Part shown: positions 4,320 through 51,899 of the stretch, in pieces
Numbering within the stretch: position 1 is the first letter of the stretch
How the letters are laid out: every line of letters begins with the position of its first letter
Assembly (NCBI GenBank): GCA_002633005.1
Contig: NMRA01000367.1
Span: 43,818 to 107,352 of the forward strand
From: Phoronis australis
Lineage: Eukaryota; Animalia; Phoronida
Length of the DNA: 63,535 nucleotides
Reading direction: 5' to 3'
Position numbers and translations under genes: made by a program
Notes under the pieces: generated by a model
Databases searched by the model: none
What the model was told of the DNA's origin: nothing
The model's input: the letters and a program-made list of their open reading frames with translations, nothing else

Positions 4320-4320
4320 N

Positions 4321-4445
4321 GGCAAACACCGTCCACTGACTCACAAACACGGGAACGGACTCACAAAACACGATCCACGCACCCAAATACACGGGACACG
4401 GACTCATATTCACGAGGAAACACGGTTAACGGACCGCCAAACACG
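4321..4445 (+). repeat. Left TIR of element A (truncated by gap)
   Basis: Inverted match to 15929-16053; repeated ACACGG/GACTC motifs continue to ~4490. Confidence 0.9.
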
Positions 4446-4796
4446 ATCCACGCCGATAAAGCATGCCATAAACACGGGACACGGACTCATCGCCTTCCTA
4501 GGTCAGCCTCAAGATGGCGTTAATCTGCTTAGCGATCAGCGCTCTCTTGAGGCTTGCGGACGAGGATGCTTCCTAAGTAAATAGCGCGAAATAGTGACAA
4601 TAACTACGCAGAAAGTGAATTGATTAATCTTCAACTATTTGGCAATACCTTCACTTAAAAAGCTTGATTTTAATAAAAAAATACAAAATGAGCTAACTTT
4701 CATATAAGACAAATATTTCAAGTCATATGATGCTATAATCCTTTTCTATGTTCTTTTTAATGCGCATTGACATTATTGTAAACAGGCATAAACAGC

Positions 4797-6257
4797 ATGG
4801 CGAGCGTGAACAACGAAAAGATATTACCAGAAGCCTTTACTCAAGAGTTCTTTTCCATTTTAAACGAAACACGTAAGTTTTTACATCATGTTTGTTAATT
4901 CAATCGATCGCAAGTTTGGTGTCTGCGTGAAATTCATTGAAATTGCAGCATGTTCAATAACTCTTGATTTCTATAAACAATGACAAGTGAGTCGTGAAAT
5001 GCAAAAATTCCGGGAAAATATGTCAGCTGATCTCTTGTGGATCGGCGTCTGTCACGGATTTACTGGTACTGCAAGCAAGTACTCTTAACATCACATATTG
5101 CAAGTGGCTACTCTACCGTTAATATTTATGCAGCTCTTACTTTGCTGTATGTGTATGATCACTCAGAACTTTTTTTTTCAGCAGACAGTGTTATGCAAGT
5201 AGAAACCCGTGATCTAGAAAGAGGTAAGCAGTCCTGATAACTTTTTAGTGCTACTAATGTTCCCAACGACAGAAACCTTCAACTAAACAAAAGTTGTAGG
5301 TCTCGTAATTTATTGTTGTTTAAAAAACCGGTAATTGCACTTGATTTCTCTAAAGGTTTGGTATCCCAGGCAACATGACATAGTAGGTTAGGGCAAAAGC
5401 AGCGGAAATACTTGCAATAAATACACTAAATTAGGAAATGAATGCTTATAAAGATCTTTATATTGTATTGTATTTTTCAGTAGACAACGTGACACAACAT
5501 GACATTAGCCATTCTACTGAACAGCCCCCAGCACCCCACACAGACACAATTGCAGGTAAGACAACAGTTCACCATGGTCAACTTCCTAAAGTTTGCCTTT
5601 GGAATTCTGTTCAATGTCTCAAGTTTTGTGCAATTCAAAAAGGGCTATACCACTCAAATAGTACCTATGATAAGGTGGTGAATTGCTAATGTTGTGCTTT
5701 ACATTTCAGCCAACTTAGACTGTGAATTTTGTGAGAAGTCCTTTAGCTGTAGAAGCTCTCTGAACAGGCACAAGAGAGTGCACATCAACGCTCAAGGATA
5801 CAGTTGCAATGAATGTGAAATGAAATTCCACACACAAGTCAAAGTCGACGACCACAACCGAACGGTGCATGGTGCACCCAAATTACTCTGTGGTCGTTGT
5901 CCAAAGAAATTCATGACTGTTGACGGAATACGTGAGCACCAACACCTCCACTCACCAACAAAATACTATTGTCCAACATGCGGCATGGATTTCAATACAA
6001 AAAGAAATTTATCACGCCACATCTCCGCCCACACTCCACAACTGAAGTGCAAGACTTGTGACTGCAGCTTCATGACAAGGCAGCACTTGGAGTGCCATGT
6101 CTTGGCAATGCACACCAATACTGCCTCTTTCAAGTGTGACAAGTGCAGTTTTTCTACAAAGCATTTGCGGTCCATTCAGCGTCATGCACTTGGCCACGCT
6201 GAAACAAGTGCTTGTGTTCAAAGTGTGGGAAAGGATTTAAACGAAAGGAGTATGTAA
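4797..6257 (+). CDS. Spliced multi-C2H2 zinc-finger gene carried by element A (exons 4797-4872, 5182-5223, 5481-5555, 5710-6257)
   Basis: GT-AG phase-1 introns join in frame; six C2H2 fingers; a seventh finger (CSKCGKGFKRKEYVNKHERRC) lies in another frame after ~6205. Confidence 0.85.
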
Positions 6258-9200
6258 ATAAGCATGAGCGAAGATGTAAAGGAAAAGAGGAGACTTGGAG
6301 TGTGGAAGTGAAAGTAGCGATTGTGTAAATACCTGTTTTGTGTTATAAATATCCATTTTGTTAGTATCTATACTCAAGTGTACAGTAGGCTAGATTAGAT
6401 CAGAGTTATGTTGATTGCTATAGTTTATAAACATATTGAAGATATTACACGTTTTTGTTATGAATACTTATATGGCTGCTGATGTGTATGGTTTTAAAAC
6501 TTAAGACAATTCTACATTTTCAGTGGAGGTATCTGCCATTACACTTTGGACCATTTTCACTTTCCAATTGAAATATATTCTAATGTAAACCTTGCATTTA
6601 CCGGGGTACCTGATAATCCAATACTCTTTTTTGACACATCTCATTCTTAAAAACATTTGGCAGTCTTTAACTATTCACATCGTTGCTTAAATCTAATTAA
6701 TTTGACCAAGCGACCACAGAGATGAGGAATTGGCGTGCAAGTTCCAGTTGAATGAAACAATTTATTATTGTTGAACTCGTGTTGTCAATCATAGGTACAT
6801 TGTATATAAATCTTGAACTAGCATGGAAATAAATCACAAACATTTCTGGTGTACATGCAACCTGTTGACCTAATCTACTGACCTTTTGAACATAGCATAA
6901 AGATTTCGGACCAACCAGTCCAAAAAACTAACTAGAATGTCCCAAAATGTGAAGAAAGGGCCACTTCCATAACTTGCATATTCCAGAAGACCTCAAAAAC
7001 AACTATTCAAGTACATCATAATGATTGTAATCACTTAAGTATATTAGGCGTTGTTGAACTAGATAGTTCCATTCGTACAAGGGGGTTAAGTTCCCCTTCC
7101 TTGACCTTGTGATATGTCCGTACTCCAGTAACTCCTTTGGCTGGGTCATGAAGGCCTGAGATCCCGGTTGGTTTTTTGGGAACACGACGTCTTCTGTGAC
7201 GGCTGTCAAATAAATGATCCTGCAAATGAGTAACATAATTAATCTTTCTTTATACTTTCAGCCAAACGCATCTTCCTGAAAGCATAATGTCGGACACATG
7301 AGCAACTATCATTGTCAGGATAACTCCTTACAAACTGGTTGTAATTAAAACTGTACAGTACACTGTACCAAAAAACATTTAAGTGATGGTGGCAGAATGC
7401 AGAAGCAAGTTGCATAGATAAATTCAAATTTGTTGTGCTATGAGATGGTAATACACCACTTGTCTTGCTATACAAAACATTTTGTTGAAAAAATGTTAGT
7501 GCTTGTGCATGCTTACATTGCAGGTGGTATTTCAGTAAAAAAAGTTGTTCGTGAAACACCCTTGAAATATATTGAATGAATTATCCTTTTTTGTTTGTGT
7601 TCGGAAAAAAGGCGATTTAGTGTGGATGAAGTTGAGAATAACCCTTGGATGTGGTAGAGGGCCGACATCCTGTTCCAGGACTTTCTCGGGGTATACTGGA
7701 GCACACGACAGGTGTAGGGGAAATTCCCTAAAAAGCAAAAAAAATGATTTAAATTACCACATTCAAGCGTTTGCGAAGTTATAATTTGTGCAAGCCCTCA
7801 TGGCACAATGGAACAGCTATCTCAAACTCTATTTTTGCCACTGAGATCAATTTAACAAAAAATAAGCTATACAATGTTTCTTTCCATTTCTAAAACTAAA
7901 AATATCAATGGCAACCATATACACACTTATACACAACTTCAACAATACTAACCTTCCTGGACCTAATCGAATGAGCGCCTCCCCAATTACTTTTCCCAGA
8001 TAAGTCTCTAGTGTTACACAGCTCGGGGTTCCATTGTGGGATGAATTGCAGAGTAGCTAAGCTTGAGAACAACCCCTCACAAGGCTGGGTTCCAATTGCT
8101 CGTTGATTGTAAGTTCCTCTCCTAGCAAGGCCATACAGTAAAATATCACCATCAATAGCTGCTATAAGCGACTCCCACAGCTGTTTTGGATAACCTCCAA
8201 CGTAGCTTCCAACAGGGGGGAAGGAGTGAACGTCTACCAGATTAGTCAACATCTTTCGGTACCTGGAAACACGACAAAATATAATAAATGAAAACGCCCT
8301 ATCTACTTCCACATAACATGCTATGCTCGCCATGAACTAGCCAAACAAAAATACTAGTTGAAACAAAGTCCAATTCTGCAAGACAAGGGAAAGTCAAAAA
8401 GCTTACTTAAGTTTCATTTCACAGCGACGTAAAGCAGGAATTGCAGCATCATCACACGCCATGAACCACTCTCTAACCTGAAAGGAAAAAGGAAATCGTT
8501 AGTTGACTTCATATGTACATTGAACAGCATTATATGATGGTTTAGAACAGAAATTGTGCCTGACTCGCCATCACATAAGTTAACATTCGGTAACTTGTTG
8601 CTTTGGTGCAGCCCAAAGGCATTTGCATAATTTGTCACCTTTAGTGTTGTGTCGTGATGACTAAGCAAGGATCGATCATGGCATGAAGAACAATGATTTC
8701 CAAGACTGAAAAGATTGAAAAATTAAAAACTGTTTAATTTAGTTTTGCATGATGGAAAAACTGTTAAATTTCTATGTAGATTCACCAAGAATTGACCTGT
8801 TGGTTTTTCTTCCAAAGATGACTGAAGCTACAGAAGTGTACAGGAAGTGACTTTACTGTTACTACGTATGTTAATTGTTTTTTGTGTTAACTCTAAGAAA
8901 ATTGTTTTACCAGTTGCCTCATGACGTGAAGTCTTCTTAACTTAAGTACCGAAAACACCAAAAAAGTAGTCGCAACCTTTAAAGTAGGAAAAAAGTACTC
9001 ACCCTTTCGCACAGTTCAGCACTCCCAGCATAGCCTTTGTTCTTTAATTGCTGCTGAACATCTTCACCAAATGTCAGCAAACTGAGATCAGTAGATTGCA
9101 TATCCAGGTTGTCCTCCATCATCCCCACTTTAAGTCGAGTCTTTCTTTCACTAGCAACTTCCAAAAATTCACATCGTTTACCACCAGCTAGATCACGCTT

Positions 9201-10559
9201 ATTCAATGCAGCCCGAGTTCTTGTCAGTAAATGGGTGGTGTCAATAAGACGAACTTCTAACTGGTTTCTGTTATTGACATACTGAGGACAATAATGCCGC
9301 TGCAGTGGATAGAATTCTTCCAGTCCTGCAATTATGATTTTCGTCAAAGGGGAGAGTCGCATTCCAGTCTGAGACTACTTCTATGAATCTCCACTCAGCA
9401 AAACTGATGTTTAATGCAGCCTTTGGATAGCTTTTCCCCATCACCACTTTCGTAGCCATTGCCATGAGTTTCGGGGGTGTTTTTCTCTTACTTGTCAGGT
9501 AGTCCCCAGACAGTCGTAATTTTTCAGCAATGGTACTGACAAGTGTAATTTTTTTTGATTGCCAATCACAACATGTAGCGCATTGCCTACAGTAACCAGC
9601 TCTGGCACTGTTAAACGTTGTAGAGAAGGAATATTGGTGAACAAAAAGGACATCTAATCATGTGATTTTTCTCGATACTTCATGTGAGACTGCTTAAGTG
9701 CCAAAATTGCATGAAGAACACCTGTTGTGTCTACTCCGTCTTCCGCATCTTGTTCTTGCTGCTGTTGGGTAGTTGCTGTGTCCATGGCAGCCAGCATATA
9801 TATTATCTCCTCTGCAGCATTATTATCGGTGGATATTACTTGTGGAGTCAGTCGAGGCTCATCATAGGTGGAGTTTGCGCCACAGGCAGGCAATCTGTGA
9901 ATCGCAGAACTTGGCAAGCAAAAATTATCCTTGAGTTTAACAGTGAAACTTCCCCACTCTCTGGTAATGACGTAACATTCATAGTTCAGTGTCTTGAACT
10001 CGACCAGCATTTTTTGCTTAGACAGGCTGCGTACTTCTTGCCAAAAGTCTCTCTGAAGTTGTGTCAATGTCATTGGTCTCCCACGTAAATCCCTACTTAA
10101 AAAATTAACAAAGGCTCCGTCGAAACTAACAACTGGTACATGAATGCCATCAGCATAGAGTTTATCTAGAAGATCCTCGAGGATTTTACGCATAATCTCG
10201 ATGGGCAAACTGTACCCTTTGAGCATGTAGCAGACGGGTGCTCCGAGGATTCTGCTCTCCTGGTTAACCCTATCAAGATCACTTAAGACAAAAGCAACCA
10301 TTTCGGTGGCCTTGTGCCGCAACAATTCATAGGTCTTCTTTAAGTTTTCTTCAGCTACATCAAACACTGTACAGTCCAATTCGCATGGTGTCAGGTCAAG
10401 GTCAGGTGGTTGGATGTATGCATCAGTAGGTACACGATACTGTTGTACCTGTTTACTTTCTCTGCAAACATGAACCGACTTCAGTTCAGCTACAAGCTGG
10501 CAATTGTCCTTTACCCTCTGTTTGATCAGGGCGAACAAGATCTTTGACGTTGGTGTTAA

Positions 10560-11160
10560 ACATATGGGTTTCTTGGCATCTTTCTTGTAAATGAGGCCAA
10601 TCTCGGAAACAGCCATATCCCAAACTTCCTGGTCAAATTCAATTCGAAACACTCTTGTCGTGTGTTCACGGAAGGAAACGAACAATGCACTGGTTGACTG
10701 AGAGTGCCACCACCTCGGCTTGAATTTGAAGATAGTATTGCGCTGGCACTGTAACATGATGTCTCTCCAAAAAGTACGGACATTTTATCTCTAAGGCAGC
10801 GATCGGAACACCATTTTCTTTCAAACAACCATCTGGAGAACTTATGGTGGACACTCCATCCAGGGTCATGGGTATGCCGCCTACTTCAAATAACTCCCAC
10901 TTTGGTTCAAAAACAGGCAAATACTTTGTGCACACAGTTGCAATTGCACAATTTTCATGTAAATTCCCATGCTCCATTGCCTGCCGAACTTCAAGTGACG
11001 GTTCTTCACGCGCTTTACCTAGAATCTGTTGTTCAAAAAACGCCTTCTGCTTTTTCAGTGAATCTCCGCCTAGTGCCTCAAATAGCCTGCTACCAGTGAG
11101 GGTGGCTTTACTCCTTGCCTCTAACCAAGCACTTGATCTCTGCTTTATGAAGGCAAGTCC
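10560..11160 (-). other. YqaJ / lambda-exonuclease-like PD-(D/E)XK domain within the transposase
   Basis: KQRSSAWLEAR...LTGS...AMEHGNLHE..A...SSPDG...LEIKCP...YYLQIQAE...FVSF. Confidence 0.9.
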
Positions 11161-13399
11161 TTTTGACATCACAGTTTGAAGGTCAGTCACATCCTCAATC
11201 ACGTCACTAACTGGTGGTAATGTGGCACTCCGTCAATAGAAATTGGCGGATCATGGCACCAGTTGCTAAACTTGGAATTTAAAACTGCAGCGGTTTGACA
11301 TAACTTGTCAATGATGGTGAGGTTTGTTACAAGTACTTCACGAATCTCCACTAGTGTAGCTATAAGTAAACTGATGACAAAAGAAAACCTGGAATTTCTG
11401 TAGTCTGGTCCACTCTCTTTTTGCATCTTTTCCAAGGCATACTCTTTTTTGATTGCATAGCTTCCAACTCTGCTCTTCGTTCACCCAAGTTGCTGACAAC
11501 ATCTTTGATGGCAGATGAGAGCACAGAGTCTGTGTTAGAGTTGCCCAAGCCTATGAATAGTGATCCAGCAGACTGCACAAACTCTATTTCCTTATCATGA
11601 CGGTTTCGTCTTTCTTGCAGCGTAGTATCGGGGTCATAACCTAATAAGTTGACATCCCCACGGTTTCCTCGTAATCCTGGAGCCACTTTCTTTCCATCAA
11701 GAGAGAGACAAACGCTTGTGTTTTGAGCACGAACAGCTACTTGCTGAGCTATTGATTGGCAATATCCAGGAGACAATTTCTCTGGCCAGTTGATACCAAG
11801 GGGTCTATAATTTCTCACGATGGCTTCATCTGGTATGGCAAGAATTAGGTTTAAGCCAGCATGGTTCAGTTGCTGATCTTGAGAGTTCCCTCTTATCAGT
11901 GCCCCCTCTCCACGCCACCCAGTGAGATAACGAAGAGGGGCTGTCCCCCATTTTATTTGGAAAAGCTTCCAAAAAGTTTTTGTTGTAGTCGAATACCTCA
12001 TGGCTCGTATACATGGAAGGTTTAACTGCTGCAATGTTTCTAAAATAATGTGAAATGTCACACTTGATGCTGTAAGTATGTCTTTGTCAAGTGCCATTAA
12101 CAGTCGATGAACTAAAAGCTTGTTCTTGTCTGAAGCTGCGCATACTTTAAGAAAGAATCTTGTCATTTCATCTGACCTGCAACTGAAAAAATCTAAATGT
12201 ACTTTGATAAAAGCTATAATTCAATATGTAAAGAACCAGCTCATAAATAAAAAAACTATCATATAAGCAATCAACTACTACTCCATCAGCAAGCCAAGAC
12301 CGGTCCTATCGTCTGGAGGAATAACTGATAACTTAAAATTTAAGTAGGTAAAAAGTATCTGCCAAAAATTTACCATAAGTTTTGAAAAAAATTTCAACGA
12401 ATATTTCAGAAAGTATGAAGACTCTTCACTAAAAAATAAAGTTGTCTTCAAACAGATTTCAAAAGAGGGAAGTCCTTTGAAAACATAAGAAAAAATGTTT
12501 ACCTCCCCTTGGAAAAGCTGTTTTCCTTCTCTGTCTTGATGAAGTCTGTATATTGTGTACTGACACCGCAGTTTGATTCTACACTGCATCAAAAGAAGAT
12601 CCTTTCTCACTAAAAACATCAATATCAATTTCAATTTACAAAGAACTTATTGTTGTAAACTGTACTTGTGAACATAAAAAATGAAATTAGGATATCACAC
12701 AACAGACTATTGTTGTTTTCATTTTTATTTAATCATCCCTGCTTAATGGAAGAAAATGTAAATGAATTCATGATGTCTGGTTTCATAAATTTTACACATG
12801 GTTAACAGTGAAATTGTAGTGAGCTTTACACGTAACGTATAGACACATAAGAAAACAACAGGTCGAACAAAAAATTCCTGCTGCCTGAAATGCTGGATGG
12901 AAGATTAAATACCAGAAAACCAAGTCGCTTCACTTAACAAAGCTTTGGAAGTAAAGCAATTTCAGTGAAAAGTGTGCAAAAGGCCTCTATAGCAAGAACG
13001 TAGGCTTGCTGAGAATGAACATTGCATTTAAGCACAGTGTATATCGCAATGGACTTATAGGGGGCCTAACTAACGTGCTCCCATTTCTGTTTTGCAGATT
13101 TTAACACCACTGTCCCACCATTATTATTTTTATTTAAAAAATCATCAAGTATGTACGTTTTTGTCGTATCTTGGAAAGGTTGTGGCTTGTTCACTGAGAT
13201 TGGTGAAACACATGGGGAAACTAATGAGCTCTGTTTCCTGTAAAAAAAGCAGCAAAATACAAGAAAAATGAAAAACCAAATGATCGCCGCACAAAAATTT
13301 CATGATAAACCAACGTTTCGGCTATTCGTTAGACATAATCAGGATATTTACATAAGACAACAAGTGCCAAGATACATCTCAGGTGACATCCATGAAGTG

Positions 13400-13615
13400 A
13401 AGTGAGAGATGTTTTCAAACCTCTTCGCAAACTTTCCAGCATGCTATATATGCAAACTGAAGTCACCCATCACTTTACTGAACTAGAGCAATGTTGTTTA
13501 TGAGGTTGAATTTGACAACTGTAAGGAATTCTATATCGGACTCACACAGAGACGCCTCTGTGACAGGCTGAAAGAACATCACACCTCAGAGAAAAGCAAC
13601 ATATATAGACATGTA
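13400..13615 (+). mobile_element. Penelope-like retroelement fragment (GIY-YIG endonuclease) in an intron of element A
   Basis: SNVVYEVEFDNCKEFYIGLTQRRLCDRLKEH...SNIYRH. Confidence 0.75.
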
Positions 13616-15249: not shown

Positions 15250-15928
15250 AAGTCCAGGTTGAAACTAAATTAATAAAGTTTAATGTGATAAATATGACTT
15301 ACGTTACGTCTTGTCCACATTTACAGCACAAAGAAAATGGCCTTGAATTAGTTGAGTGACTACAATTGAGTAGGCCTGGGTTGTCTTCGTCTCCACATGC
15401 ACCACATTTTACACATAACTCGCCGGCTATATGCGTCAAATCACAGCCAGTTAGAGATGATCGCCAAGTCACTCCACAGCGTTCACAAAAACCATTTTCT
15501 GACGCGGCGAGAAATGAATGCGAATGAGAAGAATGGTGATATTCTTTTTCCAAATTACGTTTTGCCTGGCTGACAGATCTTTGGGGTGTCGAAAAATGTT
15601 TTCTTGGAGCAGATCCGAAAGGTGAAATAGGTGAAAGACAGGGTCTTTTCGAGTTAGAACGGTCCATGTCATTTTGAGAATAAAGCGCGCGAAGAAAGCA
15701 GGCGATAACTGAAGTCGCTAGTCTCACTGTCAAAATTAAGATTTGATGTTACAAACAGGTTTGGAAAGTCAATAAATTGCAGAACAAATAATTAGTTTCA
15801 ATAATGTTTATTGTTTCTAAATCATAACAATTACATCACAGTACAGACAAAAATAACATCAAAAATATATTTAATCTCGCACCCATTACACAGCTGTCAA
15901 CGCTGAAGTTGACATTTTGTCTGTTGAC

Positions 15929-16109
15929 CGTGTTTGGCGGTCCATTAACCGTGTTTCCTCGTGAATATGAGTCCGTGTCCCGTGTATTTGGGTGCGTGAA
16001 TCGTGTTTTGTGAGTCCGTTCCCGTGTTTGGGAGTCAGTGGACGGTGTTTGCCGGTCCGTGAGTCGTGTTCATGCGTCCGTTCCCGTGTTTTTGAGTCTG
16101 TTGACCGTG
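15929..16109 (-). repeat. Right TIR of element A (~180 bp, terminus 5'-CACGGTCAACAG)
   Basis: Inverted match to the left TIR; periodic CCGTGT motifs; followed by TAG and Gypsy sequence. Confidence 0.9.
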
Positions 16110-16245
16110 TAGTTTAGGTACCTTGACAATGACCATGGCAATTGGTCTCCCAGTAAAGTGGTTGAGGTGTCGGGGCAGATCTCCCGAATCATTTGTCGTA
16201 ACAACACCGGGTGGTGTCAGTATTCGCCGCAATCGAAGAGAGAAG
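16110..16245 (+). pseudogene. Gypsy integrase C-terminal (GPY/F-like) fragment
   Basis: RYLDNDHGNWSPSKVVEV / SPESFVVTTPGGVSIRRNRR, continuing the 3965-4319 fragment. Confidence 0.8.
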
Positions 16246-36620: not shown

Positions 36621-38160
36621 CACGTTGGCGTTTTCGAATGTTCGCAAATGTACTTTAAGCATTGTGTACAAATTTGTTCATTTCGCTTTTCTACACGAAT
36701 ACGACCAATACGGTGTTTACAAGAAGTCCTCTTTTAAGGGCATTTTCAAAAATTAATATGTGTTTCGTTGATGCATTCAGTCAGTGCCCATGTCTTACAT
36801 GAAATGTAGTCGTCGGCAGAAAAGGCATCTGCGAAAAGAAATACATGTAAAGCGTTTTTAAAACTTTCAGAGTCGTGTGGTGTCAGGGCCCTACATTAAT
36901 CAACCGAGGCCAAGTACATAGCACGTCTGAAATTTTTAAATAAACAACGTTTACGGCATGCCGAATACAGGGTCACTGTCTTGGAGCACGTTCTTAAGCA
37001 TACGTGTACGTGTATCGTAATATCGGTTGAACTATGTGTAATGACTCTGAATTGCATGTACGCGTGCAGTAAGTCATTCGCATTTCTGATCAAAATTCTC
37101 CCCCTGCTTTGAAAACAAACAATCATTTTCATAATTTTCGGAAAGAAAGTGAACTAAGACGATAGCAAAAACACTACATATGATAGTCCAGATTCTACAT
37201 TTAAAGAACGCTCTTGTCAGAAAGGAACTCTCAACAGGAGATGTTTGTAGTGACAAGTAAATAAGTATAACTTTTATTTGCCCTGAATACGTACTATTTG
37301 CATAATCCTTACAACACAGACAATTAAATTAAACTCTTAAATTTAACTTAACTTTAAACCTTTAATCACAGCCTCCCGAAATTATCCTGCACATCAACAA
37401 AACCTATTATTACCGATTGACTTGCCTTTTTACACTTCATGGTAATTGCATGAAGGCAATTTTTCCAGAGAATTAAAATCTTCCACAGAACCACCATATT
37501 TTCAGTCTCAATCTGTTTATCCAACTTACATTGGGAACTGGACCAGTCTTCAAAAGTTGACATGGATCAGCTGACACGGAACGTGTTGTTCCATTGTGTA
37601 AAGGGGACTGACACGAGCAAACTGACACCGCGTTGACAATTTTTGCCACCCGTACACCGAACATCGCGAAACTGGGGCAAGGCGGAAAGATAATCCCTAC
37701 TGCGCTTGCCAACAGATGACCTACGTACGGGTTCTTTGTCTCTGCAACTCTCGTCATTTGTAAACCTGCACATGTGTGATCCAGGCTCTCCAGTCTGCAA
37801 TTTCCGTCTTGCCACAGTTAGTTTGTTTTGTGTGTAAATGGCCGCTAGACACGGGTCAATTTGCTTCGCGTCAGTTGAGCCGGGCCAAACGATGATGTCT
37901 AAACGGGACTTAGTGTTCATTAGAAGAAACACGTCCTATACATGTATACTGCACGCATTAATTCTAGATAATGGCACCTAGAAGATCCTGTCAACAGTTT
38001 GTCTCCTTGTGCCATTACGCGCGACTTGTTGATGTTTATCTCCGATTCTTCCCTATCTTGAGAAGTATTTCAGTTGTAGCCTCGAAAATAAAGCATCAAA
38101 ACACCGACAATAGCCTTCGCGCCGTATAATTCAGAAGACTTGAACTATTGTCATCAATTT

Positions 38161-38314
38161 CACGGGTGAGAAACAACATGACTGCCGGTCCTCCAAATCG
38201 GACCGGCTCACCCAAAAAAGGACCTCCGGGAATCAAATGGGACCACAGCACCAGAAAATGGGACTGACACCCCTAAAAACATGACTGCCCCACCGGGGAC
38301 TGAACATGACCTCC
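38161..38314 (+). repeat. Left TIR of element B
   Basis: Imperfect inverted match to 50211-50383; GGACC/GACT motif recurring about every 20-22 bp. Confidence 0.85.
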
Positions 38315-38693
38315 AGACAAAATATTATTATCAATGGTTGTGGGTCATACTGGTTACGACGATAGTTTACCCGAGAACAAGTTATCCTCGATCGCATTTT
38401 TGACTTGACTAAAACGTTACATTAAAAAACTGAAATTAATTTGTTTTACAACTGACTCAGTGGATAAAATTATGTTTATACAGACAAAAATGCGCAACAT
38501 GCTTGGTTTTAAGTTAGATTTATTAAATCTAAATGTTGTTATGGTCTTTGGGCCAGAGGGTAGCGGCGCGCCATTTTCATCGAAAAAAAATAGTTTGCTT
38601 AATTTTTTACTATGTCCGTTGTTTTATAACGCCTGAACTGTTGAATGCTATTGCCCGAGGGAGGCTCGTAGTAGGGGAAGCAAAGGGCATCAA

Positions 38694-41600
38694 TTGTTTT
38701 CACCCATTTTGCCGCTAGTTCAACACGTTCCAGTGAAGTTTCCGTCGTCAACGCCAGCATCAAAGCGGACTCTATTCAACGAGCCATCTGAATCCTATGC
38801 CGATAAGTCCCACTCGCATTCATTGCTGGGCTTTGGAATATGTGAACGCTGCGGTCATCAGCAGCAAGGTCGGGCTGATCAATCGAACTCCAGTCACTCT
38901 CATTCCATGTTAGTGGGAATCTGTGACCGTTGTGGACTCACGGCAGAACCAGAAGATGAGTCGAGTAATTCCAGGACCATGACCATAGCCTCAGGCATAG
39001 GTCACAACGTCAGAGTTCACTGCAGTCATTCAGAAACTCCTGACTGGGAGCTGTGTTTCACATGCGGGTCAAGAAATACAGATCAACCTGAGTGAGTTTG
39101 CTCCGCATATTTTGTTCTAGCAGTGCTTGTGCTAATGTTTTTGAATTGATTCGGACCAACTACAGTACTTAAAAATATAAATTTATACTTACTTTTCTCC
39201 ATTTTAATGACATTAAAATTCATTACCTTATTCTGTTATGACGCCCTTATTTACTGAAATTTGAAATATATATTTTAAATTTATTTTAATATCAGATCAT
39301 TTTGTTAATTTCTTTATAGTTTTATTGATTCTGAATAAATTATACCACTCCACCGTGATGAGTATGGAAGACCTCCATGGTCTCCAGCACCTGTCCTGTC
39401 TCAAGTGGAGAATGGGTAATTAAGTCACATGCAGAGAATTTAACTCTAAGTGCATTCAATCAAGCTAGTAAACATCATCTAACCTAAAGGATGGTTTTAT
39501 GGCCAATGACTTTGTATATTTGAGTAAACGTGATTGTTTCACATAGCGACCGAATGCAGTACATCAGGTGAGTTCATGGTTAAAGACACTGTACATGTAT
39601 TTGTAAGGCAATGTGCACCTTGTCGCAATTTGATGTGTAATCACACAATTGACTGATGTTAAAACATTTACAAAAGGTAATGAGCCAAGACTTAAAGAAT
39701 TATGGTCATTACTATTTAAGTTAGCGTGTGCAATAAATTACAATTAAATTGAACTGTGTACTTGATTAATTTCAAATCATTTATTTGTTTTTATTTCATA
39801 ACATTGAGCATGACACCTTTCCCTCTCAAGGAATGAATGCACGTGGGAACAATGGGAACATGACCTTTGACTTGTAAGTAACTGATAAAAGTATTAAGAG
39901 TTACTGAAGAACACATACTATCCTGGTATAATGTTCATTAGATTTGTTTAATTCGTTTAATTCGTGTTGTTTCTCGTTAAAATAGTTAAGAACATATTTT
40001 GGTGATTTTAAATGCTCATTGTCTTGTAAAACCATAATTATCTTTCATCAAATTCAATGTTGTTTAAAGTGCAATATTCCATATTTCACATTAGATTTGC
40101 CAAATCTTTGCGTTACTTTTGATTTCTAAGTTGCACGATTCATTTACAGAGATGGTGAAGATGATCATGTACACTTGAAGATCTGTGAGCCGTTGACTCG
40201 TGTACTTCAGTTTAGCAGTGCACCACAACTAGTTGTCCAAGTCCTGTTGGCACTGGATTCTGGAAATCTCGATACATCATGCCTCACGAATAACATCATC
40301 CTTGAGACTGTTCTGCAACTGAATCTGGACTCTCTGTGGAACATGCGCTATATGAAGTTGTTTCAGCTCAAATTTGGAAGCGCACCCTTGCGGGTTTTGG
40401 CTGGGTGGAAGTGTTTTGGACAGTTAAGCCAATATGATGCCAACAGTAGTATTGATCCATCATTGATGGATGCTATCATAGCTGTTCCAGATCCTCGTTC
40501 CTTGGAAGATCACATTCCAGATCAGAACTGGCCTGATAAGCCGACTCGTGGTTATTGCAAGGAAGTGGCAAAAATTGTTTCCAAGTCAGCAGCAGGTACT
40601 AGCCTCTGTCTGGCGTTTGACGCAAAAAAGTTGCCCCCGGGAATAAAAGGAGACCGTGAGGACATCAGTCTTATAGGCCACGATACATGAAAGACATTGC
40701 TACAAACAAAAGAAGACCACGCTGAAGAACTTGCCCTAGCTTAATCAGCCAGGTCAAACTATAGCTCTGCCAGTGGCTGACATCATCCAAATGTTATCGA
40801 TACGACGGTTGCAGTTACTGGAAACACTACAGAAAAAGAAATATGCGGTAGAAAAGTTAAGAAAAGATGGTGGCCCTGATTACCGACAGTCAAAGTATTC
40901 CTTTGTGATTAGCCTGCTATTGGCAACTGTGGTCGAATTCCAGGAGGCCCCTGTGACCAACATGTCTGTTATTGATAATATGACAACTACCCTGTCATCT
41001 CAGTCAGTCAGATTGGTGGAATTTCATGACATCGATGCATTACAGTGTTCATCTGCACCTGAAGACATTGCCTTAGCACGCCACATTGAACGGAAGGGCC
41101 TCCCATTTGTGAAGCAAAGAAGTGCTGCGTGGTTTGATGTTAGAAAGGGTCATGTGACAGGAAGCCGGTTGTATGAAGCCGTGGGGGAGACACGTTATTG
41201 AATCAGAAGGCTTACTTCGATAATGTGATGAATGGTGACCATGAGACTGCAGCTACTCCAGAGGTTCGGGCTGCGATGAAACATGGGACGAGGCACAAGG
41301 GCTGTGCAACAGCAACTGTTTGCTCCAAGTTTCTCCCTTTATTTCATCACACGTCAATCTTCAAGGAAGTTGGTTGTTTTCCTATCGAATATAACAACTT
41401 CAGAGTTATCATATCACCGGACGGCTATGTGATAGATGAGAGTACCGGGTACACTGCAGCAGTGGAAAATAAGTGCCTACACTTTACACTGCAACCACAC
41501 CGGCACTTACCACCTCGCTATTACCTTAAATTCAAGGAGAAATGGTTGCATTGAACACTAGCAGCTGTCTTATCATTTGGTGTGGAAACGTGCAACGTTT

Positions 41601-44600
41601 TTGAAGTGAAATATGATGATGAAGTTTGAGAAATGGCAGTTGCAGAAGTCTTCACAATATTCAACCCAGACAGCCCTCGTCGCCCTGTATCACGATCTCC
41701 ATCATCAAAAGCTCTTAAGGCTATTAAATTGAACTGCAAAGTGAACTGCACCTTAATTGCTTGTGTCAAGTCATTTCATGTCTGTGGTATGCACGACCAG
41801 GAACCTACATCTATACAAGTTTATCCTTCTCTGAATGATATTTAGGAAAAAGCGAAACACACATGAAGAAAGTGTATCAGCTGTTGAGACAAAATGCTAC
41901 AGAGATGGTGGCGTTTGTGTTTTCCGATCTCGACCGAATAAATAGCGAAAATCGTGTTCTATGTGTGCCTGTGTGTTATTTTTAAAGGATTACAGTCTGC
42001 CAAACAGTATCATGCGTAGCATCCTAGTAGACTTACTAAACAAGTTGTGGAAGGATAGCCACTGACGATATTGAAACTACATACAGTAAGGATTGTTGGT
42101 TTGAAGTCCGTCAAACGTCAAAGAGTGTCATAATCAAAGCTTTCAGAGAAGCTGGAGCAGCTAGATATGCTTTTTCAAGACAAGGCAGTTGCTTGGTGGT
42201 TGAGTTGAAGCCTGGGGAATTGCTGCCATGATGACCAAAGAATGTGAAACATGAACTAACTCAGGAGGCACATGTATTTGTTGAGGACACGAACATGGCT
42301 GCAGGAGATTTAATGGCAAGGGCAGAAGATGCTGAGACAGATTTAAACTCAGTTGAAACAGTGGCCAACGATGAAAATACAGCAACCATATGTGCAGAAA
42401 ATGCCACAGAGGCCATTGTTTCGGTCCAATTGCATCAGTTCTGAGAAAAAAAGCATACCAGGTTCGAGGGTTACTCTCAACTAGCTTTGGAGGCGTTGTT
42501 TATAGACATGAGTATGCTCCAAAAATTTACTATTCCTGAACTGTTACAGTTATCACGGCTTTGGAATTAAGACTGCCACGAACACGGTTAAAGTGCGATT
42601 TAGTTAATGCAGTAGCATTATATAGGAGAGTTATAGCATTATAAGAGAGTTTGTGCCACGGAAACGAAGAAACCCAACGTCAATAGCCCTGCTTTGTCAA
42701 AAAGCCACTTCCAAGCTACCGAAAGTTGAGCTGAGTGCTGCCTACTGTGAGTGGGTGTTCCCATCAAAAGTAAGAGAATGGCAGAGTTCTTTGCCATTTA
42801 ACGTGCACATGACAATTCCTGGCTTAGAAGATTTCCAGTTACAGGGGTTTTACTCACATGAGTTCAGTGAGTCGAGACAACGAGCTGAAATTCGACGAAT
42901 TGATACCCCACACCTGCTTACAAGGCATAGGTCAGCAATAAATAGAGGAAACCTGGGGTCAGCTAGGAAAGGTGACTTCGTGAAAGTTGCAACTGAAATG
43001 AGAACTCCGTTGAAGATATGAATGATAGAAGACAACTTGAGTATACAGTCTACGGATTTCGCACAAATCACATTTTCGAAGGACGTTGAGAAGGAGTTGA
43101 CGCGTTTGGGTTGACTTTGTAGTGCAGACTTGTGTAAACAAGTTTGTAAGCACCTAGTTTAGCCTTCTTGGCATGATTACCTATGGCATAGGCTTAAAAA
43201 AAGCAATGTGGGATAGAAACTACTTTTTAAGTGTAAACTTAAGTTGGGAACTGTTTTCCTTCTGAACTGCGTTGCCCGAGATTTGATTGTTGATAACCTC
43301 ACAAAACTTGCATTAGACAGCTGTAGCCTTAAGAAATTATTTCAAATTATATATTTATTTGTTGCCCTTAGGTTTGTGAGTGGTTTCAAGCGTGCGATGA
43401 ACCTGGTATCCCAGCTTTATCTCGCTGTAGATTGAAACTTGAGTGAGTAGTATGTTTTTTCTCTTCTTTTTGCTTTTGCTTGAACTGGATACATTCAACA
43501 AGTTCCAGAACCAATCTTTCTGATTGCGAACACTAATTTTGTGTTAAGGTAACTAGAAACTTGAAATGCAGGTTTTTGCAGCACACCAGAGTAATTTATG
43601 TTATTGTGGATTCATTATAGTTCATCAGAACACTTGGAGTTGAGATAATATTTCTGTTGTAGCTTCCGCAAAGTATTAAATGAAAACTGTCATTAATTAA
43701 AATGATTAGTACATTGTATATATCGTTAAAAATAACAAAACTGAAACAATTTCTCAGGCCGTTTAAGACAATTTTATGAGCTATCAACATGACTTGATGT
43801 ACACAGGCATCTAAGGAAATTGATGAGCTTGGTGGATTTGACGTCATTCCAACCAACTGGTTCACACATATGTGGTTATCTTAAGGTTCTATGGGAGGCA
43901 ACAGTTGCTGTTATTGATGCTGACATTCAGCTATATGCCCTGGCCAAAAGGAGGACTGACAGCCAGAGATCTCTGGGCAGTCAGCCATGTGAGGGACTAT
44001 TCTCAAGTCTTGCAACTATGCCATCATTACATAATGGAACTCCAAGCTGTGTTGCTCAACAGACCGATCTTTGGAAAGTCTTGGGCGAAGGCATGGTCAG
44101 ACTAGATTCATCAAGGTATATGCCTTTAAAGGCGAAGGAAACCTTTTTTCATGTCATTTTTAGCAAAAATATGGTTCGTTTATTATCCTAGACATATTTT
44201 ACACTTATTTACGGCTCTTCGTAATTTAATTAATCACTCGTCGTCTACTGCGGAAGTGACGTATTGGGAGGCAAGAATTTCGCGCCAATTTCTTTTCATA
44301 TAGTCTGACTGTTAGAGCAGTCGAGTCAGTCATTGTTCTACCTCAGTTGTGATAAGTTCAATCGTCGTTTGCTTTTGCTTACGAGTCAGTCAACATGCTA
44401 CGCTGTTGCTGCGTACTGGAGTGTACTCACGTACAGAGGAAGAACTGTCCCACTTGCCCGACTGTCCCGCGACACACTCCCAATGGAGGGTGATCTGAGC
44501 ACCCAAACTGCTTACATACCGCCGTGTGACTCCCGCGCCACACACCTGGCACCTTCCAAGTAGCTCCAATACACCTCCACAATAAACTTATCAAACTTAG

Positions 44601-46275
44601 GCTCACCGATCTGTTCATTGGATGACGAACTGTCCTCTTCACCGAACTGGGCCTGTATTCACTTCCACTACTCAACATCGCTGCAGGGCTCTTTACAGGC
44701 TCTAGGCTAGAGACAACAGCATAGGGCGAATCACTGCTAGTTCCCGGAATTGCACGCAATGGGGTACGTTCGGAGGCACGGGTAACGGTAGATGAAGTGC
44801 CTCCAGTCACTGTATATTGTGGCCACAGCTCGCGAGACTTCTTGCTTCAAAAACGCACTTCTCGGGGTTGGCGACCGGGCACTGCCGGAAATATACAGCG
44901 ACGGTATGTTACCCTTCTTAAGGCGTTGTTTCGCAGGGCCCTTCATCAATTCCGCGTACATATCTCTGTCGTAATCTGACGGCAGAAAATGCTTGCCACA
45001 CTCGGTAACCCTCCATTGCTTTGTACGTTGCGTGGACGGGTTGCTCTGCGTTCTTCACATGAACGAGCTAGCCAAGTAAGGCGAAGTGTGTCATCCTTCG
45101 GAAAGCGACGCAAGGTACCCAAAGCGCGTGTGAGACGATAATGAGTACATCCCAGCACGCAGCAACAGCGTGGCATGTCGACTGTTGACTGTCTTATAAA
45201 CAAAAAAACGACTACCGAGGTAGAACAATGACTGACTCGACAGCTCTCACAGTCAGACTATAATGAAAAGAAATTGGCGCGAAACTCTTGCCTCCCAAAA
45301 CGTCACTTCCGGAGTAGAGGACGAGAAATTAATCAAATTAGAAAAAGCTGTAATTAAGTGAAAAATGTGTCTGGGATAATCAACAAACCTTTTTTGCTAA
45401 AAGTGACATGAAAAAAGGTTGCCTTCGCCTTTAAAAACATAACCATGTTCATGTCTCACATACTTCCAATATTAGGCCTTTATATGTTTTGCAAAGATCG
45501 CTATTTAATGTAAGGCTATAACAATTTGTAATATATTTGTTCCATTTTGTAGCCCCAAAAATTGTTCATGAATAAAGAAATAGGGAACAATTACATTCAT
45601 ATTACCTGTAATTATTAATATCGTTTGCAGAGATTTTTCCACTGCGATTATCTATAGCTCCAGTCTATCCAGAAAAGGTGCTTGCAGGAGATGCTGGTGT
45701 GTTACCTCTACCCCAAGCAGCTCCCACCTTCATAGATACCATCAGTATTAAGGTGTATTAGACCATTCCGTGCTACCTCATTCTTGTATAGATGAAATTT
45801 GTTATCTTACGTGATTATCTTGCTGCCATGACTGGATTTGTTTTATGCTGAATTGCTATTTGGATTATTGTGTTATTTAATTACCGCACCCATTCGGGTT
45901 AAGTTCAGGACTTTAACTCGATCAACTCAAAATCAGGGGTTGGATTTTAAACTAAACGCAATGAAACATGGGGCTTAAAAGAAGTTTGTTAAGTTTTGGG
46001 GTGGCACTTATCCAAGCCTTGGCGGTAAACCCAAATATAGGGAAACGATAAAATGATTTTGTTTTGTATTTTGGCATTTTCAGAACCGTTTGTTTGACAG
46101 TAAACACAGAAAGAGGAGGAAATCCAGAAGACCCACTGGCATTTCGAGTTTGCATGAGCCATCAAAAGGAGTCACTGGTGTAAGGTTCCATCATAAAATT
46201 AATGAAGGTGCAATGAATCCTTTGGTGAGGCTTGGTATTTCGACACGCAAATCTCTGGAAAGCTTAATTGGGTGA
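38694..46275 (+). pseudogene. Degenerate spliced P-like transposase with YqaJ domain (element B)
   Basis: Exon 1 to ~39091, large exon ~40150-43140 (CLAFDAKK, KQRSAAW, ISPDG, VENKC, IDTPHLLTRHR), then 43372-43442, 43807-44115 (SQPCEGLFSSL), 45632-45752, 46084-46275; many stops. Confidence 0.8.
44130..45430 (-). mobile_element. Kolobok-like THAP element with ~220-bp TIRs and TTAA TSD, in an intron of the element B transposase
   Basis: TTAA|aggcgaagg.aacc ... ggttgccttcgcct|TTAA; frameshifted THAP (MPRCCCVLGC..RFPKD..W / KHFLPSDY..RLKKGNIPSL) at ~44740-45177. Confidence 0.85.
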
Positions 46276-47339: not shown

Positions 47340-47660
47340 CCTCGTCTGCTTTGAATTCATGCATACTGTGCGTCCGCAGTTTTTCTTCTCGCACTAATTG
47401 CACTGGTATGTAGTGGGTGAGTGCACCTCACTGTGTCGCTGCAACCCACTCTGTGGCGCAAAAGTACGCCGGCATACCTTGCAAGGTATTTTTTGGCCCG
47501 TGGCTTCCGCTTTCATGATCTTCACGTTCCGCTTTGCTTTAGAAGTGCCGGTGACACAGTTGGCACCGAAATGGCAACTTTCCCTCGTGTTCGTGAACGT
47601 GACGGTCCAATGCGCTGCGGTGTGTGAACTCCTTAACACAAACTGAGCAACGATGACTTT
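47340..47660 (-). pseudogene. Degenerate C2H2 zinc-finger exon of element B
   Basis: Phase-1 acceptor then CSVCVKEFTHRSALDRHVHEH, CQLCHRHF*..EDHESGSH, CKVCRRTF..GLQRHSEVHSPTTYQC; candidate upstream exons near 48140-48225 and 50083-50160. Confidence 0.8.
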
Positions 47661-48524
47661 CTGAAAATAAAAAAGACCCAAGTAAGCACAGAACAGGAAA
47701 AAATGAAGCAAATCTCAAAGATTGACTACAGAGCTGTCGGATCTGAGGTTTCCAAATTCACACTTTTTTATACAACTTACATATTGTGTCAGATCAAATA
47801 CAGTAGATTTCAAGATTGCTTACTAAGAGTGATTTTTCCTCATCGGAAACAGTTACGATACATGTACATTAAACAGTGGTTATTTAGTTAGATTTAGTTA
47901 GATTTCATTTTATTCATTTCATATAAAGTAATAGGAACCTCTTAAACACAGGAATTTATGCATAAGTCAATAAATTGCAATCTGATGGAATCTGATTTAT
48001 CCAGAGTAAGTGAGATATTATCTAGAATGGATAGTGAATGGACGTGAGACAATAATGCAAAACAATTGTAAAGGTTGACTCCATGGCATCAAAACTTACA
48101 TGAAATGTGAGGTATTGGCACAACAAGTGCTTTGGCCTCAAGTTGGTGTACATAACCACCGATTCCTCACAGCATCCTTTGATACAATTCATTGATACTG
48201 ACGCTTCTTGAACAGTGAAAGATTCTGTAAAGTAACATGTCAAATTTAGGTTAACTTGCACAAATGGTAGTAGACTGCAAGCACAGAGTTGTTAACGCAG
48301 GAATAGATATTTATTATCAGTTATTAGTAGTTATCAAAGGTGTGTTGAAATATCACTTCATACAACAGCCAGGCATTGCCGACAGAGCTTAAAAATTAGA
48401 GAGGTAACTAAAATTGGTGAAATTTTCACTGCACGTTAGTAAGTTACTGGGGGGCATCATGGCCTCTTCCGCTAACCACTAAGCATGCAGAGCACGTTTG
48501 TTACTCAATTATTGCACATAAGAA

Positions 48525-50210: not shown

Positions 50211-50383
50211 GGGAGTTATGTTTCAATCCTCGGTGGTCCTGTTTTGTGGTGGGACAGTGATGTTTTTAGGTGTGTCAGTCCCATTTTTCTGGTGCGGTGG
50301 TCCTATTTGATTCCCGGCGGTGCTGTTTTGGGTGAGTGAGTCCGATTTAACAGGACCGGCGGCCATGTTGTTACTCACCCGTG
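50211..50383 (-). repeat. Right TIR of element B
   Basis: Ends ...ttactcacccgtg at 50383. Confidence 0.85.
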
Positions 50384-51899
50384 ACGTGGATTCTTACAGC
50401 TTGCCTTCCGAGTTGATGAAATATCGTGTAAAAAGCTTAGAAAAAACAACTTAACTGTTGGTGAAATCAACCTCCTTGTTGAAGACCGTCACAATGTATC
50501 AAAAAGGTCGGTCAAATATCTAGTCGGCATGTTTAGAAAAGGTGCAAGTACATGTATCAAGGAAAACTTTACAAACAACGTGCGAAAAAACTCAAAGGGC
50601 ATGCACGTGCGTTCATCGACCAACATATGAAAGAAAACGATAAAACAACTGCCACAGAAGTACAAGGGTAATAAGAGAGTTTCATCTCTTAGAGTAGACA
50701 CGAAATGCTAGGTACTGTGTTCTTACTCCAAATGGCTCGGAAAGCTCAAGTCTTAGTGATAAGCTGCGCCGATGTGGGAAAATCTGTACAGATAAAATCT
50801 TCCTTGAGTAATTTTAAGTAATTTAATTAATTACGCGCGTTGCAAAAATTGGTTGTATACCGTTATCCTGCTGCTAAAATTGTGGTATGCTATTTTGTGT
50901 CGGCTTTCGGCGCAATGAAATACTGTGTCACCTATTAGCCAGTTTCTTTTCCCACATTCTTTAATTAAACGTTCACCCCCGAAGTTGCGTAAACGACACA
51001 AAAATGATCAGAATTGGTTTCACTTTAAGTATTTGGAATTTTGATATCGGTAAATCGAATTTTAGAACAAATTTTGCTGTGATTCGGTCATCATCTCAGA
51101 AGAGATGTCGAAAAAAATGGAAGAGGCGCGTGACACGAATGTAGTCCTTTCAAAATTACGACATAATTTTATGTTACAAAAGGCGGAGAATAACGCAAGA
51201 AAATGACGTTGGGTATTTTTCGCTTAAACGGCTGTAACGGGCAAGGCGAGTGCATATTGACTTCCAGATTTTGCATGCACGCCCGCTGGTATTTAACTCA
51301 TGTTGATACAAGTTGCACGAGCAGGTGATGAGCGTAAATATACGGGCTGTGTGCAAATTGGAGGTCTGTCGCAGATCATTACACAGTGGCACCTTGCTGT
51401 ATTTTGATGATTGTTTCCATACAGCTACCAGCTTAGATAGGAAAGTGACGTCAAATTCAAAATGATGATGGATCATTGTTGATATTATATTTCCGTTTAC
51501 ATTCTTCCGTTTTCATGCGCCCGTGATTAATATCTGCGCTATGTTCAAACCATTGTATACGTTGTTCCATGGCTGTACCACCATATTAAGAAATTCTAAA
51601 AAATAAACAACAATTTTCTGTGGGAAAGCGCAATATGCAGCGTGATGAAGTGATGATCAAGAGCAATAACGGATGAGCGCAAATGCGTGCTAATTGTTAA
51701 GAATTCACGGACATGAAATCACTTGAGGGCGTAAAACATCCAGCGTTGTATTCTGATTTTTAAGCAATTTTACTGTAACTCTTCAAATTTCCTGGTTGTT
51801 GCATAATGTATAAAAAGTCTTTTATCAAGAATTGGAAATTATGTTTTTGCACTATCATTGAACGTTTGATTTTACCAGCAAATCAACATAAAGTTTACC

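Follow-up and report, generated by a model that had tools for sequence, protein, structure and literature searches.

A 63,535-nucleotide stretch of Phoronis australis DNA (the window) contains element A, an inactivated member of a widespread group of animal DNA transposons. Its transposase is almost certainly built as a P-type enzyme in which a helical stalk, leaving the catalytic core between strands 1 and 2, carries a lambda-type exonuclease. The case is built from the remains of two elements in the window, from protein relatives in which the same parts form single chains, and from predicted structures of two of these relatives.

Results

Elements A and B

Elements A and B look like transposons of ~12 kb each, with inverted ends and a C2H2 zinc-finger gene convergent on the transposase gene (Table 1); a convergent gene of this kind was seen at two further loci.

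Table 1. Parts of elements A and B, in window coordinates
Feature	Position	Strand	Remarks
A: upstream inverted end	15923..16125	-	begins CA at boundary 16125/16126; short repeated motifs inside
A: Cys-rich probable first exon	15302..15748	-	ORF; GT donor near 15301
A: helix-turn-helix (HTH) region ahead of RNase H core	11699..12178	-	P0036 equivalent matches the P transposase structure, starting at its residue 135
A: D1, putative first catalytic Asp, RNase H strand 1 (CLSLDGKK)	11698-11696	-	
A: long helical stalk out to nuclease	11234..11620	-	frameshift near 11450; helices 246-366 in P0036 model
A: YqaJ/lambda-exonuclease-like PD-(D/E)XK domain	10690..11145	-	motifs intact; flanked by frameshifts
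A: return linker and helix, nuclease to core	10320..10689	-	
A: RNase H strands 2-4 (KATEMVAFVL ... VVSFD)	10119..10319	-	D2 at end, 10121-10119
A: second insert, variable, partly acidic, D2 to DxxH	9340..10118	-	stop near 9655 and frameshifts
A: DxxH signature (DTTH, D at 9242-9240) and start of P-type helical insertion domain	8997..9339	-	
A: two exons, ~8477-8403 and 8262-7952	7952..8477	-	GT/AG sites; third catalytic residue inside
A: putative third catalytic residue, QPCEG Glu	8078-8076	-	
A: last two exons, ~7729-7586 and 7225-7052, basic C-terminal tail	7052..7729	-	tblastn to P0151 1570-1666
A: second gene, facing the transposase gene and encoding six C2H2 zinc fingers	5682..6257	+	
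A: downstream inverted end	4321..4490	+	outer part missing in gap at 4320
B: upstream inverted end	38160..38294	+	87% inverted match to 50248-50384
B: Cys-rich first exon	38637..39095	+	tblastn to P0001 125-224, E 6.5e-6
B: transposase pseudogene	40148..46257	+	part order as in element A
B: landmarks	D1 codon 40619-40621; YqaJ ~41113-41600; DxxH near 42900; E exon 43799-44131	+	
B: remnant of the convergent gene for C2H2 zinc fingers	47340..47673	-	
B: downstream inverted end	50248..50403	-	outer limit set by analogy with element A

An earlier note had placed a full YqaJ domain between D1 and D2 of element A, ~1.58 kb apart; the distance is 1577 bases (525.7 codons) on the minus strand, and the order of parts, the helical stretch and the nuclease motifs all stand. 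One correction is called for: in this copy D1, YqaJ and D2 lie in three different frames, separated by frameshifts near 11450, 11210-11230 and 10690-10727, and past D2 there are another stop and more frameshifts. A contig from a DNA run (X1) spans 6800-13397 with seven differing letters and one gap, none of them between D1 and D2, so these breaks are not an assembly slip, on the agreement of a run that is possibly the source sample itself and hence not independent of the window. Introns as an explanation for the breaks were ruled out: the homologue matches abut and leave no spare sequence.

The upstream end of element A is a 96% inverted match to 4321-4451 and has a sharp outer boundary. X1 contigs continue from it into dissimilar flanks (59 at 16125 and 46 at 16126), summed X1 depth drops there from ~85000 to ~40, and short two-ended derivatives occur. 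Inverted pairs lie at both sides of A and of B, and since the end repeat is high-copy, either copy alone could be flanked by chance. The far end of element A falls within a gap, and both ends together were seen in none of the seven metagenome loci.

Element B shares 394 of 972 aligned transposase residues with element A; its D2 segment is deleted, and its YqaJ domain has Lys in place of the upstream Glu. No target-site duplication was found among 10094 pairs of ends tried at this old and eroded copy. The probable first exon of element A has a weak tblastn match to residues 130-173 of P0001 (E 0.01). Raw RNA reads from three same-species runs cover the element A locus to a depth of at most 2.2, in a single orientation; these few reads gave no joint inside the element among those listed.

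The YqaJ nuclease

The nuclease of element A matches Pfam PF09588 (E 7.5e-8, profile positions 2-144 of 150) and retains its E (10956), S-P-D (10839-10831), E-I-K (10791-10783) and Q (10722). Of the 28 long relatives, 27 retain every one of the nine residues equivalent to those of LHK-Exo (W8, R12, S19, E68, S100, D102, E, K and Q137). In LHK-Exo, R12, S19, S100 and Q137 are described as the 5'-phosphate pocket (PMC3239189); to judge by sequence, the relatives' YqaJ domains would form an equivalent pocket. Lambda-type exonucleases are described as trimeric rings (PMC3239189; 1avq) and the P strand-transfer complex as a dimer (PMC7776569), a tension of geometry that counts against the best overall explanation discussed below.

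One chain in the relatives

A full HMMER scan with an element A query that contained part of the stalk, and which therefore biased the set toward insert-bearing proteins, supplied the homologues; 159 proteins were scanned, and those holding both halves were taken as informative. YqaJ lies between D1 and the strand 2-D2 segment of one chain in all 39 such proteins, and C-terminal of D1 in all 45 with room for it. Two of the seven metagenome loci carry the full layout in one stop-free frame (L003, 1362 aa; L004, 2031 aa), and L001 and L002 run from D1 through strand 2. That YqaJ and the DDE core might be separate proteins, a possibility the earlier note had raised against itself, is thus answered in the negative by the relatives. 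The insert is kept, with its nuclease, among hemichordate, cephalochordate and mollusc relatives; near-identical members (95-99%) sit on different contigs in a 34-member cluster, that of P0157.

The D1-D2 distance is 494-602 residues in 26 relatives, as against ~70 in P transposase (D230-D303, the spacing quoted earlier, which agrees with PMC7776569 and PMC8230255), and shrinks to 82-87 once the insert of 409-517 residues, roughly 460, is removed. The Asp of D1 is kept in 27 of the 28 long relatives; together with the shortened spacing and the predicted position of D1 on strand 1, this speaks against a true first Asp beyond YqaJ. The D and H of DxxH are present in 24 of the 28, the other four rows being incomplete sequences, and follow D2 by 168-471 aa (23 relatives), compared with 36 residues in P (D303-D339). 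Mean identity is 35% in YqaJ, 33-36% in the core and 20% in the linkers.

A THAP-like pattern was present in none of 21 relatives' N-termini of at least 80 residues, in gene models that may be incomplete, nor was THAP among the matches listed (25 of 28 Pfam families). PF21787 is matched by the window over profile positions 85-130 (E 0.082) and by P0095 over 64-132 (E 1.4e-5); the six matches listed all begin at position 63 or beyond, after YqaJ. Isolated D1, DxxH and E stretches of the window had no Pfam match. Nothing was found either when two window ORFs were compared with proteins by word index, one window ORF was scanned against metagenomes, or the window's YqaJ was searched against PDB sequences. 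As leads only, ESM Atlas scores of 0.84-0.87 pointed to PF21787/PF12017 clusters, with recognition below threshold, and a score of 0.88 to a 1399-aa YqaJ cluster.

Predicted structures

The AlphaFold models are of two relatives with ~25-35% identity to element A. Drosophila P transposase is the top structural match of both, across the insert, in keeping with a looped-out nuclease, the arrangement that the earlier note had proposed to test by structure prediction. The P0036 model (pLDDT 86, pTM 0.82) superposes on 6p5a with Z 28.4 and an rmsd of 2.9 over 376 of 442 residues, model residues 96-1128 falling on chain residues 135-567, and this single superposition covers both the HTH and the helical insertion domain (strand 5 to E helix). 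The second model (pLDDT 84, pTM 0.75) matches P transposase with Z 23.3. In both, an RNase H fold is predicted that puts the first Asp on strand 1, the second on strand 4 and the Glu on a helix past the insertion domain; in the P0036 model DxxH directly follows the strand at 924-926, the [C/D]xxH arrangement expected after strand 5. Lambda Exo and LHK-Exo head the nuclease rows for both models (LHK-Exo in P0036: Z 15.8 over 409-608).

A model trimmed to start eight residues before D1 aligns its first residue with P 220, Hermes 172, mouse RAG1 592 and HzTransib 117; if ungapped, its D9 would fall on P 228 (within two of D230), Hermes 180, RAG1 600 and Transib 125. The last three we take to be the first catalytic Asp of each enzyme. 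The models support assignment of D1 (the LDGKK Asp) as the strand-1 Asp of the RNase H core, and they predict that strand 1 rejoins strands 2-5, with D1, D2 and E in one active site. When the A1 profile was searched against PDB sequences, exonucleases were found and P transposase was not; the link to P transposase rests on the folds and on the weak PF21787 matches.

Discussion

The transposases described here have in common with Drosophila P transposase (PDB 6P5A/6PE2) and vertebrate THAP9 an HTH, a split RNase H fold, DxxH past strand 5, a helical insertion domain followed by E, and inverted ends. GTP binding by the insertion domain and an 8-bp target-site duplication are further marks of the P superfamily. 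The present elements differ from P in the nuclease insert between strands 1 and 2, the longer D2-DxxH spacing, the ~12 kb length, the second convergent C2H2 gene and the THAP motif that was not found, for which last reason we file them as P-like and not as canonical P elements. With lambda exonuclease, LHK-Exo and the YqaJ family the nuclease shares its fold (Z 15-16), PD-EXK motif, an E68/E85 equivalent and the 5'-phosphate pocket, but lambda exonuclease is free-standing, whereas this nuclease is embedded in the transposase through both termini. In KolobokE (Kolobok superfamily) a lambda-type exonuclease lies downstream of the transposase domain, in contrast to its place here inside a P-like core. 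ISL2EU (PHIS superfamily) is likewise an animal TIR transposon with a YqaJ domain, of stated-unknown function (PMC4482050), carried there on a second ORF beside a PIF/IS5-type transposase with THAP, and here in a single frame with the transposase (L001, L003, L004). Tn7, which pairs a second nuclease with a DDE enzyme, offers a functional analogy only: TnsA and TnsB are separate bacterial proteins and TnsA is an endonuclease, unlike the lambda-type exonuclease of one chain considered here. No description of YqaJ inside a P-type transposase was found in the literature searched, Repbase being outside that search. P families bearing a YqaJ domain are reportedly recorded in Repbase, and this one may thus have received a name already.

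As the best overall explanation, in which our confidence is evenly divided, element A is a dead P-fold element of a kind whose exonuclease, in working copies, resects the ends of the donor flanks. DDE cuts would leave these ends with a 5'-phosphate, and their resection by the looped-out exonuclease, a particular role that we put forward tentatively, would produce 3' tails and so tilt mending of the vacated donor site toward homology-directed repair; P donor breaks are described as repaired by HR or NHEJ (PMC7776569). With the sister chromatid as template, a copy could be restored at the donor site even as the excised copy enters a new site. The earlier note's inference, end resection or donor-site processing coupled to transposition, is in this light plausible. 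In place of the missing THAP domain, the C2H2 protein might bind repeated motifs in the ends. An accessory role for the nuclease fits P0020 and L004, in which the DDE layout survives although the nuclease motif has decayed. These two may, alternatively, simply be decaying.

The same architecture could also serve a division of labour in one chain like that of TnsA, which cleaves the transposon's 5' ends, and TnsB, which cleaves its 3' ends (PMC9527255): YqaJ would cut or trim the element's own 5' strand and the DDE site would act on the 3' ends. Tight coupling is suggested by the position within the catalytic core, and the residues of the nuclease hardly vary. The 17-nt staggered cut of P is, moreover, unusual, and PMC7776569 describes its order and mechanism as unknown. 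We nevertheless think this somewhat unlikely, given that the fold and 5'-phosphate pocket are of the end-loading exonuclease type, that P cuts both strands without a domain of this kind, and that P0020 and L004 keep the core while losing nuclease residues. Unlikely, too, is the full set of propositions that these are undescribed, widespread and recently active ~12-kb animal transposons in which an in-sheet exonuclease is obligatory for the non-transferred strand and C2H2 replaces THAP.

We hold it distinctly improbable that the nuclease works once strand transfer is complete, to trim 5' ends or flaps where the element has inserted, or serves mainly as an end clamp. The 5'-phosphate pocket would suit target-site ends too, and the undetected target-site duplication of element B points the same way but means little in so eroded a copy; the retention of catalytic as well as binding residues in 27 of 28 relatives speaks against this reading.

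A passenger or nested YqaJ gene, with D1 non-catalytic or the fusion an artefact of gene prediction, is largely refuted and very improbable: the separate frames of element A, the separate YqaJ ORF of ISL2EU (PMC4482050) and the P0151 gene model, which is without the D1 strand, are outweighed by stop-free genomic frames, by the 39 single chains, by element B, which reads through two of element A's three breaks, and P0003 (Branchiostoma belcheri), contiguous over the third, and by predicted models that close the fold. Domesticated host genes are no more credible, the single X1 copy at 85% likeness, the few RNA reads and the missing target duplication being set against two pseudogenes with inverted ends, the sharp, many-flanked end of element A with its short derivatives, and the 34-member cluster.

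The place described for insertion domains in DDE transposases is between strand 5 and the E helix (PMC7776569); the present proteins house an entire additional enzyme between strands 1 and 2. Because the nuclease is carried in a single chain with near-identical, multi-copy members, one protein and a set of point mutants would allow the role of a lambda-type nuclease in transposition to be tested. If these transposases do resect the breaks they make, that would be relevant to the way in which cut-and-paste elements increase in number.

Results

Element A, one of two copies here of a P-like transposon carrying a YqaJ (lambda-exonuclease-like PD-(D/E)XK) domain, has its three candidate catalytic codons (D1, D2 and E) on the minus strand, just where the earlier note had placed them. 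That note's full YqaJ domain with catalytic motifs is likewise borne out: the Pfam match covers profile 2-144 of 150 (E 7.5e-8, exceeding the curated cut-off), and E...SPDG...EIK...Q is intact. The proposed D1-D2 span of ~1.58 kb enclosing YqaJ holds as a distance (1577 bases) but not as a continuous frame: more than one frame is used, with three frameshifts (near 11450, 11210-11230 and 10690-10727), and past D2 come a stop near 9655 and additional frameshifts. Over 6800-13397, a DNA contig from sequencing run X1 shows seven other letters and one gap, none between D1 and D2, at a flat depth of 43.6; X1 is possibly the source sample, so that this agreement excludes an assembly slip only. Element A is a pseudogene. 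RNA reads at this locus are sparse. Element B, 40.5% identical to A over 972 aligned residues, shares its domain order with similar exon breaks and is contiguous across two of A's three breaks; its D2 segment is lost.

Features of the window, of metagenome locus L004 and of the P0036 model
Feature	Sequence	Position	Strand	Detail
D1 codon, A	window	11698-11696	-	
D2 codon, A	window	10121-10119	-	
E codon, A	window	8078-8076	-	
Pfam YqaJ, A	window	10669-11232	-	
Short repeat in A's long first intron	window	13300-13900		very high copy, plentiful in RNA reads, both strands
Inverted repeats, A	window	4321-4451 / 15923-16053		96%
Element B	window	~40150-46250	+	
Insertion nested in B intron	window	44119-45441		1.3 kb; inverted ends ~310 bp, 81%
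Inverted repeats, B	window	38160-38294 / 50248-50384		87%
C2H2 gene, A	window	5682-6257	+	
C2H2 gene, B	window	47340-47673	-	
Tandem units	window	2917-4300		five of 238 bp, 94-97% alike, abutting gap at 4320; possibly assembly collapse; sequence they run into looks by eye like an LTR-retrotransposon integrase end
ORF	window	34978-35403	-	weak immunoglobulin C2-set match, E 0.004; possibly host exon
Old dispersed repeat pair	window	21648-22373 / 52858-53587		67-69% alike (both pairs)
Old dispersed repeat pair	window	24243-25099 / 35780-36622		
Divergent member	L004	1898-7990		2031 aa stop-free; PD-EXK residues lost from YqaJ; additional acidic insert ahead of E helix
Strand with D220	P0036	214-223		
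Three long helices	P0036			between strand 214-223 and nuclease
Nuclease	P0036	~386-602		
Return helix	P0036			after nuclease
Strands	P0036	698-706, 718-726		
Helix	P0036	732-748		
Strand ending at D759	P0036	752-758		

Used as an HMMER query against 1.84 billion representatives, A's ORF 11363-12220 yielded 225 matches at E <=0.001, the best 150 of which entered the analysis. Our alignment of 28 long relatives comprises 26 of the 27 listed matches of at least 968 aa (P0090 was excluded) and two cluster members, near-duplicates of P0002 and P0003; segment profiles derived from it were run against 159 proteins. D1 was detected in 150 of these; YqaJ lies downstream of D1 in 45/45 proteins with at least 330 residues after D1, and between D1 and the strand 2-D2 block in all 39 proteins holding both, in a set that is biased because the query takes in part of the stalk and that retrieved no canonical P transposases. 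We checked for gene-model artefacts in raw DNA of seven metagenome loci. L003 and L004 encode the helix-turn-helix region (HTH), D1, YqaJ, D2, the P-type DxxH signature and E in a single stop-free frame; in L001 and L002 a single frame runs from D1 as far as the strand 2 block. L005 is disrupted; L006 and L007 provide only short stretches. The 39 single chains and the stop-free frames of L003 and L004 contradict, for the relatives, the possibility raised in the earlier note that YqaJ and the DDE core are separate proteins. Named hosts of the relatives are Ptychodera flava, Branchiostoma belcheri, Batillaria attramentaria and Mytilus edulis; several relatives are 95-99% identical copies spread over different contigs, as expected for recently mobile elements.

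D1 is Asp in 27/28 aligned relatives (the strand is absent from one gene model), as is D2 in 27/28. DxxH is kept in 24 rows, the other four being truncated, and E in 21 (six gaps, one Lys), one of which is probably misaligned. D1-D2 spacing, 494-602 residues in 26 rows, becomes 82-87 after removal of the block from G-x-E (after strand 1) to the K-A-x-E strand; P has a spacing of 73 and THAP9 one of 70 (PMC8230255). The P-type RNase H profile PF21787 matches 12/28 members weakly (best E 1.4e-5), and the six matches displayed start at profile position 63 at least, past YqaJ.

For the AlphaFold model of one relative, P0036 (70 sequences; pLDDT 86.2, pTM 0.82), the top Foldseek rank is P transposase. 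With a Z of 28.4 at 2.9 A, VIA-align superposes 376/442 residues of the Drosophila P structure 6p5a, pairing model residues 96-1128 with chain residues 135-567, so both flanks of the insert (stalk, nuclease and return helix) fit a single rigid P-like core; the insert itself matches LHK-Exo, a lambda-type exonuclease, and lambda exonuclease at Z 15-16. As a register test, L003 was folded starting 8 residues upstream of D1 (pLDDT 83.8, pTM 0.75), and the superposition pairs the first model residue with P 220, Hermes 172, mouse RAG1 592, other RAG1 entries 612 and HzTransib 117. The test gives end points only; assuming the first nine residues to be ungapped, D9 would fall at P 228, within two of D230, and at Hermes 180, RAG1 600 / 620 and HzTransib 125, which we take to be the first catalytic Asp of each. 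Conservation of D1, its spacing without the insert and this register argue against a true first Asp after YqaJ. In the relatives' models, made by the kind of structure prediction that the earlier note had called for, the P-like core is closed; these predict a single DDE active site and a nuclease carried out on its stalk. Fold and register together place the insert after strand 1 and before strand 2, whereas the insertion domains described so far sit between strand 5 and helix 4 (PMC7776569). A second, variable insert separates D2 from DxxH by 168-471 residues, versus 36 in P.

The profile built from the alignment matches LHK-Exo and lambda exonuclease. Conservation of PD-(D/E)XK residues, another check suggested earlier, is seen in 27/28 rows, where none of the nine residues equivalent to LHK-Exo W8, R12, S19, E68, S100, D102, the EXK pair and Q137 is lost; PMC3239189 assigns R12, S19, S100 and Q137 to the 5'-phosphate-reading pocket. 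YqaJ has a mean identity of 35%, compared with 32-43% for core blocks and 20-22% for linkers. In P0020 and L004 the nuclease motif has decayed and the core is retained; that two otherwise complete members lack the nuclease residues leans toward an accessory role, or may be decay.

A's upstream end has a sharp boundary at 16125/16126 against dozens of unlike flanks (DNA contigs; four runs of one sample). Inward of it lies multi-copy sequence, and joints on opposite strands are consistent with short derivatives bearing both ends. The repeat is so abundant that its flanking position, taken by itself, could have arisen by chance, but A and B show this geometry alike, each with a different repeat. 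This very high-copy repeat (15750-16125) is probably a MITE family mobilised by this P-like YqaJ lineage. No target duplication is readable at the elements; A's far side meets the gap at 4320.

A C2H2 zinc-finger gene faces the transposase 3' end in A and B, between it and the far inverted end, and the two genes account for all 8 C2H2 motifs in the window's six frames. A convergent C2H2 gene also lies downstream of the transposase in unrelated L002 (8203-8892, minus) and L005 (7971-10409, minus), and is likely a second element gene. L004's downstream ORF differs, and the other four loci have no C2H2 motif within the DNA available for each. A THAP-like pattern occurs in 0/21 N-termini.

Discussion

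What might the nuclease do? DDE hydrolysis would leave 5'-phosphates on the donor flanks, and such ends would be a substrate for a lambda-type pocket. This favours donor-end resection that steers repair toward homology-directed copying, a reading we put forward tentatively. Its main rival, processing of the element's non-transferred strand, has a precedent in TnsA of Tn7 (PMC9527255) and would be the less likely role; action at the target site is improbable.

Repbase reportedly notes P families with YqaJ. Among the papers listed in our literature search, none was seen to place YqaJ inside the core of a P-type transposase, and the passages searched in PMC5718144, PMC4455052, PMC6431247 and PMC12730594 are silent on it. 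KolobokE encodes a nuclease of this kind, located downstream of the transposase (PMC9587614); that of ISL2EU occupies a second ORF and is stated to have an unknown function (PMC4482050). We regard the YqaJ-bearing protein as a real feature, a form of P-like transposase whose copies in this window are dead and whose relatives elsewhere are intact and recently mobile.
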